IMG/VR virus record: IMGVR_UViG_3300042731_008125
DNA: 14,616 nucleotides
Direction: 5' to 3' (one strand)
Source of the DNA: a virus
This document shows, one piece after another, positions 39 through 7,026 of this stretch (position 1 is its first letter; every line of letters begins with the position of its first letter). Position numbers and translations under genes: made by a program. The notes under the pieces are model-generated. The model made no database searches, was not told where the DNA came from, and worked only from the letters and a program-made list of their open reading frames with translations.

Positions 39-515
39 ATGATTGAAATTGCGATAGCTTGGGTTGCCGCCGTCATCTTCATAGAAGCTACTGTAGAAAT
101 AGAAGTACAGTCAGAATTATTCGAGGGGTTTAGGGCGAGGATGATCAAGATACCGGCGATTGGCTGGTATCTTCATGGGCTATTCAGTTGTGGATACTGC
201 CTATCTGTGTGGGTCAGCGCTCTGACGGCTCTGTTCGTTCCAGGTTCGCTGATCTCGTTATTCGATGACTCGGTGATTTATGGTATTCTTGGCAGCACAC
301 CGCTGGTCATAGCCGACTATCTGTTCAAAGTATTTGTGCTGCATAGGTTATCGAATATATGGCACGAAGTTGTATATAGATGGTTGGCAAGGATGCCTTA
401 TATCTTGGGCCTGAGGCCCACCGAATTCGAACCAGATACAATGGAGTTAGAAGCCGATGGCGCAGAGAAAGCTGCCGGAGATGCCGGAGATTCCGGACAG
501 GAAGATCGAGAGTGA
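39..515 (+). CDS. Polytopic membrane protein (3-4 predicted TM helices) with a CGYC-x-S-x-W motif inside a TM segment and an acidic C-terminal tail; possibly DUF1360-like
   Basis: ATG at 39 directly after an in-frame TAA. Hydrophobic stretches AIAWVAAVIFI, LHGLFSCGYCLSVWVSALTALFV and VIYGILGSTPLVIADYLF. The Cys-x-x-Cys-x-Ser-x-Trp pattern matches my recollection of DUF1360-type membrane proteins; this is a recollection, not a search result. Confidence 0.6.
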   Translation: MIEIAIAWVAAVIFIEATVEIEVQSELFEGFRARMIKIPAIGWYLHGLFSCGYCLSVWVSALTALFVPGSLISLFDDSVIYGILGSTPLVIADYLFKVFVLHRLSNIWHEVVYRWLARMPYILGLRPTEFEPDTMELEADGAEKAAGDAGDSGQEDRE

Positions 516-825
516 ATCTGAGCTGCGCGAATTATTAAAGACATATTTGCCAGGAAGCGATGCGCACGCTAGAAAGACTCTTATGGATGGCTTCGAAGCC
601 ATAAGGCATAAGAAAGAAGCTGAAGCATCGATTAAAGACATCGATCCAAAAGATTTTGGGGGTTATATTCCAGCACCACTAACAATCAACGCCGCCATTT
701 CGACTCTAGATAACTTTATAAGAAAGCGGATGGGAGGAGAACGAAAAGACCTGATTATAGAATGGCGCATCGGCGAATCCGTGTTGGTATTTGACCCGTG
801 GACAGGAGATCTGAGCAAGAAATGA
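457..825 (+). CDS. Hypothetical protein (122 aa)
   Basis: ATG at 457 with a weak GGAG 12 nt upstream. Overlaps the upstream gene by 59 nt, so the true start may be further in (in-frame Met near 580). The stop overlaps the next start (ATGA at 822-825). Confidence 0.45.
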   Translation: MAQRKLPEMPEIPDRKIESESELRELLKTYLPGSDAHARKTLMDGFEAIRHKKEAEASIKDIDPKDFGGYIPAPLTINAAISTLDNFIRKRMGGERKDLIIEWRIGESVLVFDPWTGDLSKK

Positions 826-998
826 TCGAAATCATCGAAACTCTGATCTTAGGGGTAGGAATCGCCGCTGGGTGGTTTTATCTGAGAACATTGCTCTCCG
901 GAGACTTAAGCAATAGATCGGTTTCGCGCTGGGCGCTCATCGTTGTTCCACAGGGCGTGTTTATAGCGTGGGCAATCAGAGTTCTTGGGATAATATGA
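822..998 (+). CDS. Small two-TM membrane protein (58 aa), holin-like in size and topology
   Basis: ATG at 822 overlaps the upstream TGA (ATGA). The track's 798 start is a GTG, so I prefer the ATG-coupled start. Two hydrophobic helices, LILGVGIAAGWFYL and ALIVVPQGVFIAWAI. Confidence 0.5.
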   Translation: MIEIIETLILGVGIAAGWFYLRTLLSGDLSNRSVSRWALIVVPQGVFIAWAIRVLGII

Positions 999-1300
999 TT
1001 AAGAATTTCCAAGTTGACTTAGCCTATTACAAACCCATACAAGAATGGGATGCTGCGATAGGTGATATTCTTGTATATCACGGGTGGATTTCCCATTGGT
1101 TTGGTGTTGTGTGCCAGATTAATCAAGATGGGTCTATTGAGGTGGCTAAAGCCGGAATGCCTCTGTTGCTGCTGACTATGAACAACACCAAAGTGAGCAA
1201 GTCAAAAGTCACACTCGACTTAGTCGATGTGAAATCCTCGACTGGCGGCAAATATGCCGCCCTCAAAAGCATTCAAAACACATTGGTCTGGCATGTCTGA
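995..1300 (+). CDS. Hypothetical protein (101 aa)
   Basis: ATG at 995 overlaps the upstream TGA at 996-998; the track's 968 start is a GTG. Contains GDILVYHGWISHWFGVV...GSIEVAKAG, vaguely reminiscent of the His-containing half of NlpC/P60 or CHAP folds, but there is no nucleophile Cys, so I assign no function. Confidence 0.5.
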   Translation: MIKNFQVDLAYYKPIQEWDAAIGDILVYHGWISHWFGVVCQINQDGSIEVAKAGMPLLLLTMNNTKVSKSKVTLDLVDVKSSTGGKYAALKSIQNTLVWHV

Positions 1301-1814
1301 AATCCCAGCATTACTACCATATCCCAAAATCCTACCATTAGATGAAGTCCCAGAGCTTGATGGCAGGCTAGTGTACGTTATCGAAGGATATGCCCTAGAT
1401 GGTGTGGCTATCCTATTATTCTTCCACGAAGGCAATATGGGAGCCAAATTCGGGGATTTCGACGGAAATCCAATCAACCCAGGAGATATCGATTTCATAG
1501 ATGCCTCGCTATTTGTTGAAAAACTGTCCGAGTTAATGGTGAGAGCACGCATTCGTCAAGCAATTTTCTACGTATCAGAAAGCGGCGTGCTGGTTGACAT
1601 TAGGATTTCTTTAAATGTTATGACCGGACCTGGAATGCTCAAAGATTTATGTGGAAAAATACTTCCAACACAGAAAATCATAGATATCAAACCGCTAGAC
1701 GAAGAATTAAAAGAAACAATCGAAAAAGAAGACTATATTATCTTAAAGCATAGTTCATTCAAAGTTATTACTAGAGGAGATGAGATGGTTCCGCTCTATG
1801 CGACGAAGAGGTAA
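1293..1814 (+). CDS. Hypothetical protein (about 173 aa; an alternative ATG start at 1254 gives 186 aa)
   Basis: Long ORF. The ATG at 1293 lies 5 nt before the upstream stop, a translational-coupling geometry. The ATG at 1254 would overlap the upstream gene by 47 nt. No SD for either start. Confidence 0.5.
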   Translation: MSEIPALLPYPKILPLDEVPELDGRLVYVIEGYALDGVAILLFFHEGNMGAKFGDFDGNPINPGDIDFIDASLFVEKLSELMVRARIRQAIFYVSESGVLVDIRISLNVMTGPGMLKDLCGKILPTQKIIDIKPLDEELKETIEKEDYIILKHSSFKVITRGDEMVPLYATKR

Positions 1815-1817
1815 GAG

Positions 1818-2282
1818 ATGAAGAGGAAAGATCTGTCATCGGTCCAGCGCAGGCTCCTCAGGGAGCAAGAAGAACTAGAGCTCGACATGGGCGAAGAGGA
1901 AGAGGCACCTGAAAAGGCCCCAGAAGAAGCAGAAGCCCCCGAAGAAGGCGAAGAATTGGAGCTCGAACCGGAAGAGGAGGGAGAAGCCGCGCTGGATGAA
2001 ATCCCCGTCGAAGACGAGGTAGAAGAGGACGAAGATAAGACCAAGCTGTTGACGACGACCATCGACAGCCTAGAACAGATAAGGTCTGACCTCAACAAAA
2101 AGGGCCTACTAGTCGCCATGCAGATGAGCGATTTCTCGACCCAAAGGCGCATGCAGTCCATCTCAGATGAGCTAGGTGAGATCATAAATCACTTGAACGA
2201 AAAGATGCTCAAGACGGTGGCTAAATCGCCCATGGAGCTACAGCAGGCGACCGATTGGCTGGCCGGAGGTGCGCCAGAATGA
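1818..2282 (+). CDS. Extremely acidic Glu-rich protein (154 aa): N-terminal basic patch, about 70 aa of E/P/A/L low-complexity, C-terminal helical region
   Basis: GAGGT 6 nt upstream of ATG at 1818. Composition EEEEAPEKAPEEAEAPEEGEELELEPEEEGE; the charge distribution is typical of DNA-mimic, scaffold or chaperone-like proteins. Confidence 0.65.
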   Translation: MKRKDLSSVQRRLLREQEELELDMGEEEEAPEKAPEEAEAPEEGEELELEPEEEGEAALDEIPVEDEVEEDEDKTKLLTTTIDSLEQIRSDLNKKGLLVAMQMSDFSTQRRMQSISDELGEIINHLNEKMLKTVAKSPMELQQATDWLAGGAPE

Positions 2283-2665
2283 AACTAGACGTATTACATG
2301 AAACAGTTTTGGTGGGGGCTGTGGCTTTTAAGCCCAATGTCCTTGGAAAACCATTCGGTGGCATAGAGGTATCAAGGCCACGTGGGAAACAGAAATGGTA
2401 TCTCGCTTTCTCGTCTGACGATCCCATTGAAGGGCTGATGGAAGACGACGATCCCAAGGGCGGTTCTAAAGTCAAGACCCAATTTGGCAAGCAAACCACC
2501 AAACCCAAGACACTCGTCTGGCAACCGGAAGAAGGCCAAGGCCGAGATCTAACCAACAAATCTCTATATGTTCCGCCTGGAACCAAAAAAGCAAAGGGAT
2601 ATACATGGCCACGAACAACTTTTCATGGCCAGTCCGAGGGGCATGCTGATCACATCTTAAAGTAG
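2279..2665 (+). CDS. Hypothetical Lys-rich protein (128 aa)
   Basis: ATG at 2279 overlaps the upstream TGA (ATGA), with GGAGGT about 10 nt upstream. The track's 2255 start is a TTG. Confidence 0.55.
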   Translation: MKLDVLHETVLVGAVAFKPNVLGKPFGGIEVSRPRGKQKWYLAFSSDDPIEGLMEDDDPKGGSKVKTQFGKQTTKPKTLVWQPEEGQGRDLTNKSLYVPPGTKKAKGYTWPRTTFHGQSEGHADHILK

Positions 2666-2703: not shown

Positions 2704-4626
2704 ATGTCTCGACTGGTAGAATATGTAAACCCGCACCCCTACACCGTCCAGATTGCTGGTCCCAACAAAGAAGTCATCAGAGTCAACAAGTTCACAAAAG
2801 TAGTCTTATCAGACTGGTTCATCGACCGCTATACTCCAAAATTCCTCCGTGTAGTTAGAATATTATCTGAAGGAGGACAGCAATCTCTTGGGGCTATGCT
2901 GACCAAACACGAACCGAAGAAGAAAGTCAAGCTGCTTGGGTCGTCCGCTCAAAAGAGGGTTGTAGTGAAAAGGAAAGAACGTGTCGCAGGGCAAGCACAA
3001 GGAGTGCGCAGCGGGCGCAGTGTCAAAGATCGCCGTCTCTACCGAAGAAGAAATACCATTGTCGGAAAGGCCCTAGCCCACGCCTCAGAATTATACAACC
3101 AAGCAATCCAGGATGTTTTTGTGCCCGTAAGCAATGGCATCGGGATTGGGATTCTCAGTTTTAATAGATTGCCGTCCTTGCAGAGACTGGTCAACTCGAT
3201 AAGAAAATTCACAGACTTATCTAGAACGACAGTTTTCGTCAGCGATGACGGATCTGACAACCAAGTCAAAGAATGGTTATCCCATCAACACGATATAGTA
3301 GCCATAACCAACAGAAACAGGATTGGGATTTCCGGAAACACCAACAGATTGTTGAGGTGTCTGGCTAGATTTAAGAACAAGATACTTCTAAACGACGACG
3401 TCGAAGTATTGGCTTCTGGTTGGGAACGTTTCTATACTGATGCAATGCAGAGGAGCGGGTTTCACCATTTCTGCTTCAGGCAGCCAGGGTTGTATGGCGC
3501 TGGCCAGAAAGACGGCGCACAGTCGCGAAAAGCTGGCGTGACGATCAACACCATTACAGAAAAGCCACATGGCGCTGTCTTGGCTTTCGATGATCTGGCA
3601 TTTGAAAAAGTAGGTTTCTTTGATGAGAGTCTAGACCAGTATGGCATGGAACATGTCGATTGGTCTAACAGGATTGGGCTCTCTGGGATCCAGCCACCAG
3701 GATTCCATGACGTGGCTGGCTCTGATGCATATTTCGCGATCCACAGAGAAAAGTCCGCATTACCCCAAAAGGGGCGTTTCTTAAGAGAGAATAGAGCTCG
3801 CTACGAGAGTTTGAAGGGCAACAAAAGTCGAATCTATGTAAAGGCGTCCACGAAATCCATGGTACCCAAGGTAACAATTGTAACGCCGATAAGGGATGTT
3901 GGCAGATCAGATAGCATAAGAACCGTCTTAAACAATATACGTGCTCAGAGGTTCCCCGCAATAGAAATGATCCTAGTTGAGCAGGATTTCGAGAAGAAGT
4001 TTCATCTAGGGCAAGCAGAACCGATTAAGTATATCTTCGTGCCTAGTCATTCTCCAAATCAAGATTTCAATAAGTCAAAAGCCTTCAATACCGCAATGCA
4101 AGATGTCACATCGGAGTTCGTAATACTACATGATGCTGATATTGTGGTACAAGCAGACTATGTTAAGAAAGTTATGGATATTCTTAAAGACTTTGAGGGC
4201 TGTCACATAGGCGCAAGGGTCATGTATCTAGACACGCAGTCCACGGCACAAATGTGCCATAGCGGCAATCTAGACCGCTCATACACATGCGAAAGGGCAG
4301 TCGGCTATTTTGAAGGCGGCTCAATCGGATTCAGGACGTCAGCCTACTTTACGGTTGGCGGTTTTAACGAAGCGTATGAAGGATACGGGTGCGAAGATTG
4401 TGATTACTTCGAAAGGCTGAGGGATAATACTCGTTTCTTTAACCAAAGATCTATAGATATGTTCCATCTTTGGCATTCTAGAATACCAGGATGGGTAGAC
4501 AGACATAAAACAAACAAGAAACTGGCAGAAAATATCCTGCGTACTATGAAAGGCCAGACCTACCTTACCCATCTAAAGACACAAATGCAAACCAAATACC
4601 CAGCGTCCAAGAAATACTATGTCTAA
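2704..4626 (+). CDS. Two-domain GT-A glycosyltransferase (640 aa). N-terminal basic K/R-rich segment, then a GT2-like domain, then a beta-1,4-galactosyl/GalNAc-transferase-like (GT7/beta4GalT-fold) domain
   Basis: AAGGT upstream of ATG at 2704. Domain 1 has ILSFNR...VFVSDDGSD...LLNDDVEV, GT2 signatures including the DxD. Domain 2 has NQDFNKSKAFNTAMQDV (cf. FNRAKLLNVG), ILHDADIV (DxD) and YFEGGSIGF...GGFNEAYEGYGCEDCDYFERL (cf. the WGGEDDD region of beta4GalT and chondroitin-synthase C-domains). Confidence 0.85.
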   Translation: MSRLVEYVNPHPYTVQIAGPNKEVIRVNKFTKVVLSDWFIDRYTPKFLRVVRILSEGGQQSLGAMLTKHEPKKKVKLLGSSAQKRVVVKRKERVAGQAQGVRSGRSVKDRRLYRRRNTIVGKALAHASELYNQAIQDVFVPVSNGIGIGILSFNRLPSLQRLVNSIRKFTDLSRTTVFVSDDGSDNQVKEWLSHQHDIVAITNRNRIGISGNTNRLLRCLARFKNKILLNDDVEVLASGWERFYTDAMQRSGFHHFCFRQPGLYGAGQKDGAQSRKAGVTINTITEKPHGAVLAFDDLAFEKVGFFDESLDQYGMEHVDWSNRIGLSGIQPPGFHDVAGSDAYFAIHREKSALPQKGRFLRENRARYESLKGNKSRIYVKASTKSMVPKVTIVTPIRDVGRSDSIRTVLNNIRAQRFPAIEMILVEQDFEKKFHLGQAEPIKYIFVPSHSPNQDFNKSKAFNTAMQDVTSEFVILHDADIVVQADYVKKVMDILKDFEGCHIGARVMYLDTQSTAQMCHSGNLDRSYTCERAVGYFEGGSIGFRTSAYFTVGGFNEAYEGYGCEDCDYFERLRDNTRFFNQRSIDMFHLWHSRIPGWVDRHKTNKKLAENILRTMKGQTYLTHLKTQMQTKYPASKKYYV

Positions 4627-5632
4627 GAAGCTAACGGTATTCATAACAAACTCAAAATCAGGTGCATTTTTCGAGATATCTAAAGGATGGAAGAATGCGC
4701 TGATCTTTGGCGGCCATAAGGCCATCCATTGGGACGGCGATATAAGCACCTGGCAACAATACAAACCAGATATTTATATCGGGTGCTCTGGATGGAAACA
4801 AAAATTACCTCCCAATCACAACGCCAAAGTCGCCATCCATGTCAACCCCTACTGCGATACGGTGATCCAGGTACCCGGTGGCCCTGTAATCAATGAACCG
4901 AAGCAGGCAATCGATTGGACCGTATCGCAAAAGCCCAAGTTCGTTTTTGGTTATGGCCTTCAGGACGATATGAATCAATGGTGGTACAAATGGAAAAGAG
5001 ACTGCGGCATTGATATGGTAGGGATGCCAAATGCGGCAGATATCACGATATATAAACCACAACCAGCCACGCCTAGTCTGATATGCGACGTTGGATGGGT
5101 TGGCGGCTACTGGGGCTATAAAGCTATAAATCTAGACAAATATATCGTCCCGGTAGTAAAAAGGTTCAAATCGATATGGTTCGGGTGGAGCGGCCCAAAA
5201 GGCTTGTGGAGAGGTACTGCCACCCAGAACAAAATAACCGCTCTTTTCAACTCAGCCAAGATATGTCCATGCGTGGTCGAGCCACACACAACTACCTACG
5301 GCATTGACATCCCAGAACGATTGTTCAAAGTGGCTGCGTGTAATGCACTAGCCGTATCCGACCCTGTATTGGGACTGAATCGCTATTTCTCACCAGACAT
5401 ATTACCGACAGCCAGCGATCCTGACCATTACATGCAACTATGTGAGCGGTACATCCACATGGACGCGGATAGCCGAAAGGCACAGGCTGCCAAACTAAGA
5501 CGAGCGGTACTCGCAGACCATACTTATCTGAATAGAATTAGGACGTTCTTGTACGAATTTGGGTATTATGAACAGTCAGACGAATATGATGCTCTTATAG
5601 CCAAGGCTGCTGGAGAGACAGTAGCCAGGTAG
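4619..5632 (+). CDS. GT-B fold glycosyltransferase, CgeB-like (Glyco_trans_1_2 / DUF3880-type), 337 aa
   Basis: ATG at 4619 overlaps the upstream stop by 8 nt. The C-terminal region ERLFKVAACNALAVSD...LRRAVLADHTYLNRIRTFL matches the conserved R-x-FE-ala-cG...eHTy-x-R end of CgeB-family GT-B enzymes, as I remember it. Confidence 0.65.
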   Translation: MSKKLTVFITNSKSGAFFEISKGWKNALIFGGHKAIHWDGDISTWQQYKPDIYIGCSGWKQKLPPNHNAKVAIHVNPYCDTVIQVPGGPVINEPKQAIDWTVSQKPKFVFGYGLQDDMNQWWYKWKRDCGIDMVGMPNAADITIYKPQPATPSLICDVGWVGGYWGYKAINLDKYIVPVVKRFKSIWFGWSGPKGLWRGTATQNKITALFNSAKICPCVVEPHTTTYGIDIPERLFKVAACNALAVSDPVLGLNRYFSPDILPTASDPDHYMQLCERYIHMDADSRKAQAAKLRRAVLADHTYLNRIRTFLYEFGYYEQSDEYDALIAKAAGETVAR

Positions 5633-5975
5633 ACACGCCAGGTTCGGCCTTTGTGGCGCACTTTAAAATAAAATTCTTGAATGGTATCCCTACTATCGAC
5701 TTATCTAGCTTGGTTATCCATGGTTGGTATTTTTCTAGCAGAACATATTCATCCAGATTATTGGCTTCATGCTTCGGCCAGATTTTGACATCCTTGGTAC
5801 GCCACTCTACAGAGATAGTCTGATCATCTCTTGTAACACAGATCACTAATTTGAGAGTCAGTATAGCGGATTTCTCCTCCTCGGGGAATTTAGTCGTCGC
5901 TCGGCCAACCACAACTACTCCGACGCCATCTGGTTGGCCTTCGAATGTCATTTCTTTTGAATACCACTCGATCAT
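5595..5975 (-). CDS. Hypothetical protein on the minus strand (127 aa from ATG at 5975; the track's longer version starts at a GTG at 6041)
   Basis: An ORF with plausible globular composition, but it lies antisense inside a + strand block, overlaps the end of the upstream GT gene by 38 nt and has only a weak SD. A 188 aa antisense ORF inside the MVP gene shows that long spurious ORFs do occur here. If this one is spurious, 5633-5999 is a 367 bp non-coding gap. Confidence 0.35.
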   Translation of the reverse strand: MIEWYSKEMTFEGQPDGVGVVVVGRATTKFPEEEKSAILTLKLVICVTRDDQTISVEWRTKDVKIWPKHEANNLDEYVLLEKYQPWITKLDKSIVGIPFKNFILKCATKAEPGVSTWLLSLQQPWL

Positions 5976-5999
5976 CGGTCTATCCGTATTTAACCACCA

Positions 6000-6626
6000 A
6001 TGGAAAAAAAGCGTAAAAAAAGACCACCAGACAATAGACACAGGTGTTGCGTTGGATCCTGCAATAGAAACACAACTATATTTTATTTAAAGAACTATCC
6101 GATTTGTGACAAACATTGGGACCTCGATTGCGACCATAAATTCAAATACAAACATTTTAGGACGCTTAGAGAATACTTAGGATTCCCGCCGATACCAAAA
6201 CCCAAGGGTTACGAACATATTAAAGGTGAAGAAGAAGACTGCCTTGCATACCATGCTGAGATTCAAATAGACGTAGAAACTAACGTGCCGGTGGTCATGT
6301 CAGAGGAACTCACTCTGTGGCAACCCGAATCACCGCCCAAACAACCACAGCAGACAGATGTTAAATGGAATGGCAAGAAAGAAGACCCACTGGAGCTTTA
6401 TATAACAATTAAAGATACCAATATAGTTTTATTGAGAGCTATGGGTATTGCTGTTAAATTCTCATCGGAGAAGGCTATCAAAGCCGCCATGGGCAAATTA
6501 CAAAATTTATTAGATACTGGTCTTACTACTCTACCCCTTCGGATGCAAAAAGCTTTCAAGAAAAGCAAATTCTGGAAAATCAACGAAAATTGTCAGGAGC
6601 AAATAGAGGCTGCCAATGGGAACTGA
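6000..6626 (+). CDS. Hypothetical protein (208 aa) with a very basic N-terminus (KKRKKRPP) followed by a Cys/His cluster (CCVGSC...CDKHWDLDCDH); possible zinc-binding nucleic-acid-binding protein
   Basis: ATG at 6000. No clear SD. The Cys/His spacing suggests a metal-binding module. Confidence 0.55.
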   Translation: MEKKRKKRPPDNRHRCCVGSCNRNTTIFYLKNYPICDKHWDLDCDHKFKYKHFRTLREYLGFPPIPKPKGYEHIKGEEEDCLAYHAEIQIDVETNVPVVMSEELTLWQPESPPKQPQQTDVKWNGKKEDPLELYITIKDTNIVLLRAMGIAVKFSSEKAIKAAMGKLQNLLDTGLTTLPLRMQKAFKKSKFWKINENCQEQIEAANGN

Positions 6627-7026
6627 GCGTACATATAAGAAAGGTGACAGAATAAAAGTACAAAGCCATCGCGTCAAAGTGGGAGACGTAACGATGGTTG
6701 TTGAGAGTTTTTGCGGGACTTTCCTGAAAGAATTCGTTGGTTCAGATGGCAAAACATACGTCGACTTATGGGGCGAAGGGCAATACCCAGGACAACGAGC
6801 GATCCAAAAACAATTTGTTCATGGTCACGACGAACCCATCGACGCACCAGAATATGATGGAGAGAATTATATAATCAGGTGCCAAGAATGTGGTGATTCG
6901 AGAGAGATCAAACCACAGCATCTGGGACAAGTTTTGCGATGCAAGAGGTGTCAGAAAAAGCATAATAGAGAGATGGCCAAGAAACGAGCCAAAAGGAGGT
7001 ATCGTGATAAAGAAAGCTCAGTTTAG
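6616..7026 (+). CDS. Zinc-ribbon protein (136 aa) with a basic C-terminal tail
   Basis: ATG at 6616 overlaps the upstream stop. Motif CQECG...(16 aa)...CKRCQ, followed by KKHNREMAKKRAKRRYRDK. Confidence 0.6.
   Translation: MGTERTYKKGDRIKVQSHRVKVGDVTMVVESFCGTFLKEFVGSDGKTYVDLWGEGQYPGQRAIQKQFVHGHDEPIDAPEYDGENYIIRCQECGDSREIKPQHLGQVLRCKRCQKKHNREMAKKRAKRRYRDKESSV

Follow-up and report, generated by a model that had tools for sequence, protein, structure and literature searches.

A gene pair encoding three glycosyltransferase sites in a clade of uncultivated jumbo phages, with a possible role on a phage-made acceptor

Background

Glycosyltransferases (GTs) are among the commonest unexplained genes of large phages. 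To our knowledge only two roles are well documented for them in lytic phages, namely DNA glucosylation and, recently, the glycosylation of mycobacteriophage virions. What such enzymes build, and on which acceptor, is the question raised by a stretch of viral DNA of 14,616 nucleotides (IMG/VR record IMGVR_UViG_3300042731_008125; hereafter the window, by which the whole stretch is meant) in which the gene for a two-domain GT-A enzyme of 640 amino acids (aa) (2704..4626, + strand) is followed by that for a GT-B enzyme of 337 aa (4619..5632, + strand). Across a large clade of jumbo tailed phages, all of them uncultivated, the pair belongs to the core functions. We tentatively read the two genes as one cytoplasmic glycan-building system that acts on a phage-made acceptor, most likely virion proteins. 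Knowledge of the acceptor would tell whether giant phages have glycan coats, or glycosylated DNA, as a general and ancient trait, and either outcome bears on host range, on the evasion of defence systems and on the stability of particles in water. In addition, a soluble multi-site glycosyltransferase could be of use in glyco-engineering.

Two overlapping genes and their products

Both open reading frames (ORFs) lie at the positions and on the strand where the preliminary description had put them, and the overlap and every motif quoted there were found again. The genes share 8 nt, ATGTCTAA, at 4619-4626, the start codon of the GT-B gene being placed inside the last codons of the 640-aa gene (…TAC TAT GTC TAA / ATG TCT AAG…). 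The larger product was assigned from its translation and from Pfam matches to Glycos_transf_2 (PF00535; 58 bits over two stretches, gathering threshold 23.3) and to Glyco_transf_7C (PF02709; 40.5 bits, cut-off 23). The smaller one, which is GT4-like, was assigned from its ORF, its match to Glyco_trans_1_2 (PF13524; 55.7 bits, cut-off 25) and its predicted structure. NCBIfam gave sub-threshold matches alone, to MftF, EpsD and others, and assigned no family. Neither the 640-aa protein (isoelectric point, pI, 9.7) nor the 337-aa protein (pI 8.9) has a hydrophobic segment, and both enzymes are predicted to be soluble. Scans for promoters and terminators gave numbers of sites not above those of shuffled sequence.

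The AlphaFold2 (AF2) model of the 640-aa protein, built on 101 homologues (aligned at 41-83% identity), reached a predicted local distance difference test score (pLDDT) of 90.7 and a predicted template modelling score of 0.82. It contains two GT-A domains (about aa 120-380 and 388-600) followed by C-terminal helices, and a Rossmann-like GT-A fold is predicted in both halves of the protein. GT-A domain 1 (aa 118-384; 3055..3855, + strand) is matched by PHROG 2456 'glycosyltransferase' (E 1.9e-27, aa 145-368) and has eight residues that are invariant in the 101 homologues (R155, D181, N230, D231, D232, E316, H317 and D319). Its motifs, all on the + strand, are SFNR (aa 152-155; 3157-3168), DDGSD (aa 181-185; 3244-3258), LNDDV (3388-3402), which holds NDD at aa 230-232, and MEHVDW (3646-3663). 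GT-A domain 2, together with the C-terminal helices (aa 385-640; 3856..4623, + strand), was recognised by Pfam (GT2 at aa 392-516, Glyco_transf_7C at aa 536-575), by profile matches and by its own invariant residues in the same alignment (D477, D479, E564, D565, H588 and H591). Its motifs, on the same strand, are FNKSKAFN (aa 455-462; 4066-4089), HDADIV (aa 476-481; 4129-4146), GYGCEDCDY (aa 560-568; 4381-4407) and HLWH (4465-4476). No Pfam match to PF13733 (Glyco_transf_7N) was obtained, the N-terminal half of domain 2 scoring as GT2.

Each domain has an invariant DxD motif in the 101 sequences, N230-D231-D232 in the first and D477-A-D479 in the second, and E564 and D565 correspond to the E-D pair of the WGGEDDD region when aligned to the K4CP and beta4GalT motifs. 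The two GT-A folds with DxD sites that had been proposed for this protein are thus borne out by structure prediction and by alignment: domain 2 does not have an unrelated fold, and neither the DxD nor the ED motifs are lost. When the profiles of the two domains were compared they matched each other (probability 86%, E 5e-6) with the same motif layout, LNDDV aligning with LHDAD and YGMEHVDW with GYGCEDCD, and domain 1 having His for the second acidic residue of domain 2. The two domains therefore appear to be distant paralogues.

Ahead of the catalytic domains a Lys/Arg-rich extension of about 130 aa had been described. Its basic part stands as a linker of about 60 aa (aa 56-117; 2869..3054, + strand), predicted to be disordered with pLDDT below 50 over aa 58-106, whereas aa 1-55 (2704..2868, + strand) are modelled as a folded beta-rich domain (pLDDT 90-95) of four strands, a helix and a strand. 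Among the 101 homologues the linker is 39-99 aa long with a net charge of +5 to +27 (median +12), its charge being kept and its sequence not, while E6, N9, P20, L35, Y43, P45 and L48 are conserved in the N-terminal domain. The profile of this domain matched almost only SUMO-family chains in the PDB, a tandem-SUMO chain scoring E 9.5e-6 and single ones 0.06-0.2, SUMO2 being a weak match. This is a weak hint that the domain may be a ubiquitin-like beta-grasp, a fold that is typically a protein-docking module.

In seven of the 120 best homologues (P0061, P0063, P0091, P0092, P0100, P0113 and P0119) the protein is interrupted by an intein. All seven inteins lie at one point, GYG/C…HN/CEDC (slashes marking the insertion), and so split the Gal-T-type catalytic motif of domain 2 midway, as is expected for a strongly constrained site. 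The equivalent site of the window is at 4381-4392. The window protein has Cys563, where most family members have Val, and Cys at +1 is the nucleophile that an intein needs.

For the 337-aa protein a two-Rossmann GT-B fold is predicted (pLDDT 97.0), and the top Foldseek matches of the model are all of GT-B/GT4 type (BshA, MshA, PimA, GlgM and sucrose-phosphate synthase), T4 BGT being found at rank 44 among the GT-B matches. Across 68 homologues no variation is seen at G162, G163, K168, E221, H223, E233, R234, K237 and D248; the usual FE of the 'R-x-FE' stretch reads FK in the window protein, K237 being one of the invariant residues. No sequence match was found in the PDB, in NCBIfam or in any GenBank phage.

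The coupling of the two genes was followed in 85 related loci, in which ORFs were called and clustered and of which 72 have distinct GT sequences; loci of this set are cited below as locus number and positions. The GT-B gene is the next gene after the two-domain gene in 51 of the 72 and the next but one in 10, together about 85%, often with an overlap of 4-8 nt; in four loci it is convergent. Five adequately flanked loci have no GT-B gene, a ThyX-like gene taking its place in two of them. The earlier assignment of the second gene to a GT-B enzyme agrees with the GT-B fold and with the PF13524 match above threshold, and the linkage makes this enzyme a tight functional partner. Moreover, one uninterrupted ORF of 983 aa (L017:9992-12943 and L081:9992-12943, one phage in two independent assemblies of 320 and 151 kb) encodes a fusion of all three glycosyltransferases. 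Since this family, found only in phages, preserves the three catalytic sites as a set and at times joins them in one chain, they very probably act on one product and build one glycan.

Distribution and source of the gene pair

No DNA nearly identical to the window was found among 50,697 GenBank phage records. Homologues of the 640-aa protein are nevertheless widespread in metagenomes, where 498 were found, mostly of full length (~620-650 aa) and on contigs of up to 371 kb. The two-domain gene is present on 154 IMG/VR contigs of up to 408 kb, the longest being IMGVR_UViG_3300000976_000008 (408 kb), 3300029288_000054 (388 kb), 3300030385_002649 (371 kb), 3300037067_012889 (364 kb) and 3300014208_000001 (356 kb). 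An exhaustive HMMER scan of 1.84 billion representatives returned 133 of them at E<=1e-30. The enzymes are 35-83% identical across marine, freshwater and sediment phages, and some members of the family have already been given the public name 'GT2 family glycosyltransferase'. A cellular or prophage origin was considered and rejected, since among 185,579 species genomes just four contigs of metagenome-assembled genomes, from four unrelated phyla, carry the two-domain gene; these are most likely misbinned phage DNA. The DnaB protein of the clade is at best about 27% identical to that of any cultured phage. The pair comes from myovirus-like jumbo tailed phages that are uncultivated and form a deep clade.

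In cultured phages the relatives of domain 1 are distant (23-32% identity, E 1e-6 to 4e-9). The nearest are gp18 of LittleE, gp98 of TChen and gp43 of McProf, all three mycobacteriophages, and gp237 of the Klebsiella jumbo phage FBKp24; with the mycobacteriophage GT2s the identity is 23-27% (E ~1e-8). In Mycobacterium phage LittleE (L087, 10667-15064) four GT genes and the gene of an APH-type kinase are placed between the major capsid and head-tail connector genes. In FBKp24 (L095, 139828-141897) and in TChen a GT of ~480 aa is paired with a second GT of ~200 aa, which in TChen is of GT25 type.

Likeness to glycosaminoglycan synthases

The preliminary description had seen in the 640-aa protein the architecture of the bifunctional polymerases that make glycosaminoglycans (GAGs). 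The tandem GT-A architecture and the structural matches support this in part, whereas membership of a GAG synthase family was not upheld. When the whole model was compared with the PDB by Foldseek, K4CP came first (E 5e-17), followed by LARGE1, CHSY3 and PmHS2, all of which are tandem GT-A bifunctional polymerases; the matches also included the tandem GT-A proteins COLGALT1 and mimivirus R699, which are not known to be polymerases. The profile of domain 2 matched PmHS2 (2e-8), beta4GalT7 (3e-8), K4CP (2.5e-7) and beta4GalT1 (1e-6), which places this domain, as judged from its motifs, in the beta4GalT/GAG-synthase class.

As in class-II GAG synthases, two tandem GT-A domains are present in one soluble chain; a significant full-length relationship with one GlcA-transferase and one HexNAc-transferase domain was not found. 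The whole-chain TM (template modelling) score to the best solved structures is ~0.26, the match to the K4CP sequence is local (E 4e-4) and both GT-A domains align to the same K4CP domain (A1), and for these reasons membership of the GAG synthases is not established. The similarity to K4CP and PmHS2 is generic for GT2-type folds. It can fairly be said that the modelled protein has the parts list of a bifunctional synthase, its polymerising activity being putative, and its sequence would suit a polymer made by alternating GT-A sites as well as the addition of one sugar by each site.

These matches invite the explanation that the 640-aa protein is a class-II (Pasteurella/K4CP-type) polymerase making a free or lipid-linked GAG-like polysaccharide, which would form a layer on the infected cell or alter the envelope of that cell and could serve to block superinfection or to stop the progeny sticking to debris. 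Besides the Foldseek ranking and the profile matches of domain 2 to the catalytic domains of PmHS2 and K4CP, it would account for the proteins resembling heparan-sulfate 6-O-sulfotransferase, Sulfotransfer_2 and sulfatase/SGSH that are encoded beside the pair in relatives (see below), and GT clusters of jumbo cyanophages have been proposed in the literature to alter outer polysaccharides. We nevertheless consider this explanation quite unlikely. The generic level of the likeness and the resemblance of both domains to one K4CP domain speak against it, and neither protein has a membrane segment. Among the matches listed within +/-10 kb of the pair in related loci there were no capsule-locus genes (UDP-glucose dehydrogenase, Kps-type or ABC export), and membrane-anchor families were likewise not among the matches listed near the pair. 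Moreover, a target in the host envelope would leave the strict conservation of the enzymes across very different habitats unexplained, and clusters of host-surface GTs are described as sporadic and polymorphic whereas the pair studied here is constant.

Position at the end of a replication module

In every locus seen a T4-like replication/recombination module ends with the GT pair. The upstream order is constant (DnaB, Zn-ribbon, PolA, UvsY, gp32, exonuclease, PDDEXK, three small-protein families and then the pair), and the neighbours in related loci include RecA, DnaB, a PolA fragment, a UvsY-like protein, gp32, a 5'-3' exonuclease and a PD-(D/E)XK nuclease. A T4 gp15-like protein, a baseplate-hub OB domain and a head-tail adaptor are encoded further downstream in relatives.

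In the window itself the pair is linked to this module by a co-oriented block of small genes (39..2665, + strand) that was recognised by neighbour clustering. The product families of 39-825, 968-1300 and 1254-1814 accompany the GT pair in 54-80 of the 86 sequences compared and gave no Pfam, PHROG or PDB match. Two observations on this block can be added. The product of 39-515, judged by eye, has the look of a multi-pass membrane protein. The gene at 1818-2282 (+ strand), placed two genes upstream of the basic GT and common to 10 related loci, encodes a protein of 154 aa with an extremely acidic, Glu-rich N-terminal half.

Two further upstream genes are found in relatives. A P-loop kinase of 175 aa, closest to PSTK (O-phosphoseryl-tRNA kinase)/Pnk, is encoded immediately before the pair in 28 of the 72 loci (e.g. 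L051:9483-10007); the window has no such gene. In eight relatives the replication block includes a 2-oxoglutarate (2OG) oxygenase, the best PDB matches of which are OGFOD1 and prolyl 4-hydroxylases (P4H) and not TET/JBP, so that its interpretation as a TET-like DNA enzyme was rejected. Beside this P4H-type oxygenase a protein of ~230 aa of no known family is encoded (L028:5576-7039 and about seven other loci), the two genes making up a conserved pair.

Downstream region

Representatives of 144 neighbour families were scanned with Pfam. After the GT pair there is no constant gene, and the genes of sugar chemistry differ by sub-lineage. A GDP-mannose 4,6-dehydratase (cluster 29, E 9e-122; e.g. 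L073:12495-13499) is encoded immediately 3' of the GT-B gene in 13 loci. Other families of this region in relatives are a second epimerase/dehydratase (L011:20639-21598), a cytidylyltransferase, additional transferases of GT2, Glyco_tranf_2_5 and GT9 types (the last at L057:14401-15390), a Sulfotransfer_2 match (2e-11) and a sulfatase whose C-terminal domain is of the SGSH type (L068:15447-16274). In 22 loci, the window not being one of them, the gene immediately 3' of the GT-B gene belongs to a 214-aa family (e.g. L024:12870-13514 and L028:13127-13774) in which the motifs 'HxPKxGG' and 'RHPxxWYQSxW' are invariant. Its sole PDB match, which is weak (E 0.006), is heparan-sulfate 6-O-sulfotransferase, aligned at both motifs that bind 3'-phosphoadenosine 5'-phosphosulfate (PAPS), and the family is probably a phage sulfotransferase. 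Where tailoring genes change fast around a constant core, as they do here, the pattern is that of a glycan locus subject to diversifying selection. A few kb downstream, relatives also gave a weak match to collagen repeats and had genes for neck, baseplate and sheath-stabiliser proteins.

In the window a reverse-strand ORF of 148 aa with a GTG start (5595-6041, - strand) has 38 nt in common with the 3' end of the GT-B gene. Since five related loci share it, this is probably a genuine gene, at which the operon stops. Beyond it are encoded a BNR_2 sialidase-like beta-propeller protein (8154-9131, + strand; shared only with the closest relative examined, L094:9903-10910) and a vault-like protein of 831 aa (9186-11681, + strand), which matches the shoulder domain of the major vault protein (E 2.9e-27), the vault repeat and SPFH/Band 7. 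Homologues of the major vault protein have been described in gut phages (preprint 10.1101/2023.11.10.566534). The preliminary description had joined the GT pair and the BNR protein into one module, in a region that also encodes a vault shell. Such a unit of synthesis and remodelling would serve the vault-like shell, for example by glycosylating the particle, and it would fit the placing of all these genes within 7 kb on one strand and the matching position of the BNR gene, seven small genes from the pair, in one 79%-identical relative. The comparison of loci however does not sustain it. In the first comparison, of 85 related loci, the BNR_2 gene and the vault-like gene each came out as a singleton, and the sampled neighbourhoods of the pair, which is on 154 IMG/VR contigs, hold neither. 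In the window the BNR gene is set apart from the pair by the reverse-strand gene and six small ones. The vault-like gene, absent from all the related loci including the 79%-identical relative, looks like a recent insertion. By synteny this explanation is close to refuted and we regard it as extremely improbable; the pair lies near the BNR and vault-like genes by coincidence in this locus or, at the most, as a peculiarity of a single sub-lineage.

The window also encodes Cys-rich proteins with weak zinc-ribbon matches at 6616-7026 (+ strand) and 12371-13024 (- strand), one of them with a faint match to an HNH-endonuclease PHROG.

The acceptor

How might the pair work? From the domain architecture and the gene context we infer an order of action, donors, a product (polymer or oligosaccharide) and an acceptor. 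The three active sites, those of GT-A domain 1, GT-A domain 2 and the GT-B partner, would draw nucleotide sugars from the host and, in some relatives, also through a phage GDP-mannose dehydratase or epimerase. The sugars would be added in succession, or two of the sites would alternate and give a repeating chain after a priming step. Docking on the target would fall to the putative ubiquitin-like domain together with the basic linker. The phage itself would specify the acceptor, which would most likely be at least one virion protein, by analogy with the glycosylation of capsids in mycobacteriophages and chloroviruses.

That the acceptor is probably phage-specified, and not a glycan of the host surface, is suggested by the 35-83% identity that the enzymes keep in very different habitats. 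Since the enzymes are predicted to be soluble, the acceptor should be reachable in the cytoplasm, which makes phage proteins and phage DNA the leading candidates. Several observations favour a protein. The nearest cultured relatives of domain 1 are the mycobacteriophage GT2s, encoded in LittleE between capsid and connector genes, and the N-terminal domain resembles a protein-docking module. The P4H-type oxygenase, the sulfotransferase-like proteins and the sulfatase found nearby in relatives have no precedent in DNA modification. Moreover, no enzyme that hydroxymethylates or oxidises bases was listed within 10 kb in any locus: neither a thymidylate-synthase-type hydroxymethylase nor a TET/JBP enzyme was among the matches listed for the 144 neighbour families, and none was annotated within +/-10 kb. 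A paper on moraphages (PMC12619734) cites glycans on the C-termini of mycobacteriophage capsid and tail-tube proteins; Freeman and colleagues, cited there, reportedly found in 2023 that mycobacteriophage GTs glycosylate virions.

The other candidate, DNA, has to be weighed against this. Here the three sites would build a mono- to tri-saccharide on a hydroxymethylated or otherwise hydroxylated pyrimidine of the phage DNA as a protection against host nucleases, as in the T-even phages and with the DNA glycosyltransferases of GT-A and GT-B fold described recently. Several of the points in its favour count at the same time against virion proteins as the acceptor. The pair adjoins replication and not structural genes, ending the DnaB-PolA-UvsY-gp32-5'3' exonuclease-PDDEXK module in every locus seen, and is probably made early, which suits the modification of DNA at least equally. 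Both proteins are basic and the larger has a polycationic linker, as would fit the binding of DNA or of another polyanion. The Pnk/PSTK-like kinase precedes the pair in the 28 loci mentioned, and nucleotide kinases are likewise a component of DNA-glycosylation clusters in the literature. In L016 and L018 the gene immediately after the pair is ThyX-like, and a Mom-family gene is nearby in some loci. Published phage DNA GTs span both the GT-A and GT-B folds, act in series and adjoin polymerase, helicase or ParB genes, and the generic PDB matches of the window's GT-B enzyme (BshA, MshA and sucrose-phosphate synthase) are also those obtained with DNA arabinosyltransferases.

Other points too weigh against virion proteins. 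The identity to the mycobacteriophage enzymes is as low as 23-27%. The hydroxylase, the sulfotransferase-like protein and the dehydratase belong to subsets of the relatives and are not in the window.

DNA is thus the main rival, and a serious one, although we consider it an unlikely acceptor. In the known DNA-glycosylation systems the base-modifying enzymes are adjacent, whereas no hydroxymethylase or TET/JBP dioxygenase was among the matches listed here. The only 2OG oxygenase found is of the prolyl-hydroxylase type, sulfotransferase-like and sulfatase neighbours would be without parallel in such systems, and the closest matches of domain 2 are to enzymes whose acceptors are sugars. We therefore keep to a phage-made protein as the possible acceptor. 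In an elaborate form of this proposal the GT-B site would prime and the two GT-A sites would then take turns, producing on virion proteins a repeating GAG-like chain that the sub-lineages would sulfate, desulfate or decorate with deoxy-hexoses by means of the sulfotransferase-like, sulfatase and GDP-mannose dehydratase genes nearby. This form is very unlikely to be correct; if it were, phage particles would be coated with a sulfated, animal-like glycan.

Novelty

The folds and the chemistry of these enzymes are ordinary. What is new is the combination of a putative ubiquitin-like domain, a basic linker and two apparently paralogous GT-A domains with a GT-B partner that is sometimes fused to them, the status of the two genes as a core pair in a large jumbo-phage clade, the intein in an active site and the island of genes for sulfation and deoxy-sugar tailoring. 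We found no paper that describes this gene pair or architecture. A study of moraphages, which belong to another or possibly to the same jumbo lineage, notes four core GT orthogroups without analysing them (PMC12619734, 2025). The interest of the locus lies in a three-site system with an intein-invaded active site that is kept in a globally distributed clade of jumbo phages and has a fast-evolving sugar-tailoring flank.

Comparison with known systems

The nearest enzymes in overall design are K4CP/KfoC of E. coli K4 (2z86) and PmHS2 of Pasteurella (8vh7). They are 14-19% identical to the 640-aa protein and differ from it in the orientation of their domains. The window protein has in addition the N-terminal domain, the basic linker and the GT-B partner, and its context is a phage replication module and not a capsule locus. 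With beta4GalT1 and beta4GalT7 (GT7) and the polypeptide GalNAc-transferases (GT27) it shares the class of the 'Gal/GalNAc-T motif'. Unlike in GT7, however, the N-terminal half of each domain is GT2-like and not Glyco_transf_7N. The motif itself also differs from that of GT7 and GT27, reading GYG(C/V)EDC(D/E) in domain 2 and having His for the second acidic residue in domain 1, and the protein has neither a lectin domain nor a membrane anchor.

The GT-B partner shares the PF13524 match and the GT-B fold with CgeB-type proteins and with the GT4 retaining transferases BshA, MshA and PimA, the link to CgeB being through the C-terminal domain model alone. Phage enzymes that glycosylate DNA (T4 beta-GT, JGT-like GT-A enzymes and the arabinosyltransferases of RB69 and DLP3) likewise include GT-A and GT-B proteins that act in series and are encoded near replication genes and nucleotide kinases. 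The enzymes of the window are like them at the level of the fold only and, among the matches listed, have no adjacent enzyme that hydroxymethylates or oxidises bases.

The GTs of the mycobacteriophages and of FBKp24 form multi-GT cassettes and have a single catalytic domain or other combinations of domains. Their partners are different, namely an APH-type kinase, a GT25 and a methyltransferase, and so is their genomic position. A link between the two systems through their kinases was considered and rejected, the APH-type kinase of those cassettes being unrelated to the P-loop PSTK/Pnk-like kinase found here.

A last parallel, drawn by analogy alone, is with the glycosylation of hydroxyproline in Skp1 of Dictyostelium and Toxoplasma. 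This pathway is cytoplasmic and consists of a prolyl hydroxylase, Gnt1, the bifunctional two-domain PgtA and AgtA. Its soluble enzymes, its two-domain diglycosyltransferase and its donors of the GDP-fucose type may be compared with what is seen in the window family. The oxygenase and the dehydratase are, unlike in that pathway, absent from the window and from most relatives, but some relatives do combine, as the Skp1 pathway does, a P4H-type oxygenase with the two-domain GT, the GT-B enzyme and a GDP-mannose dehydratase.

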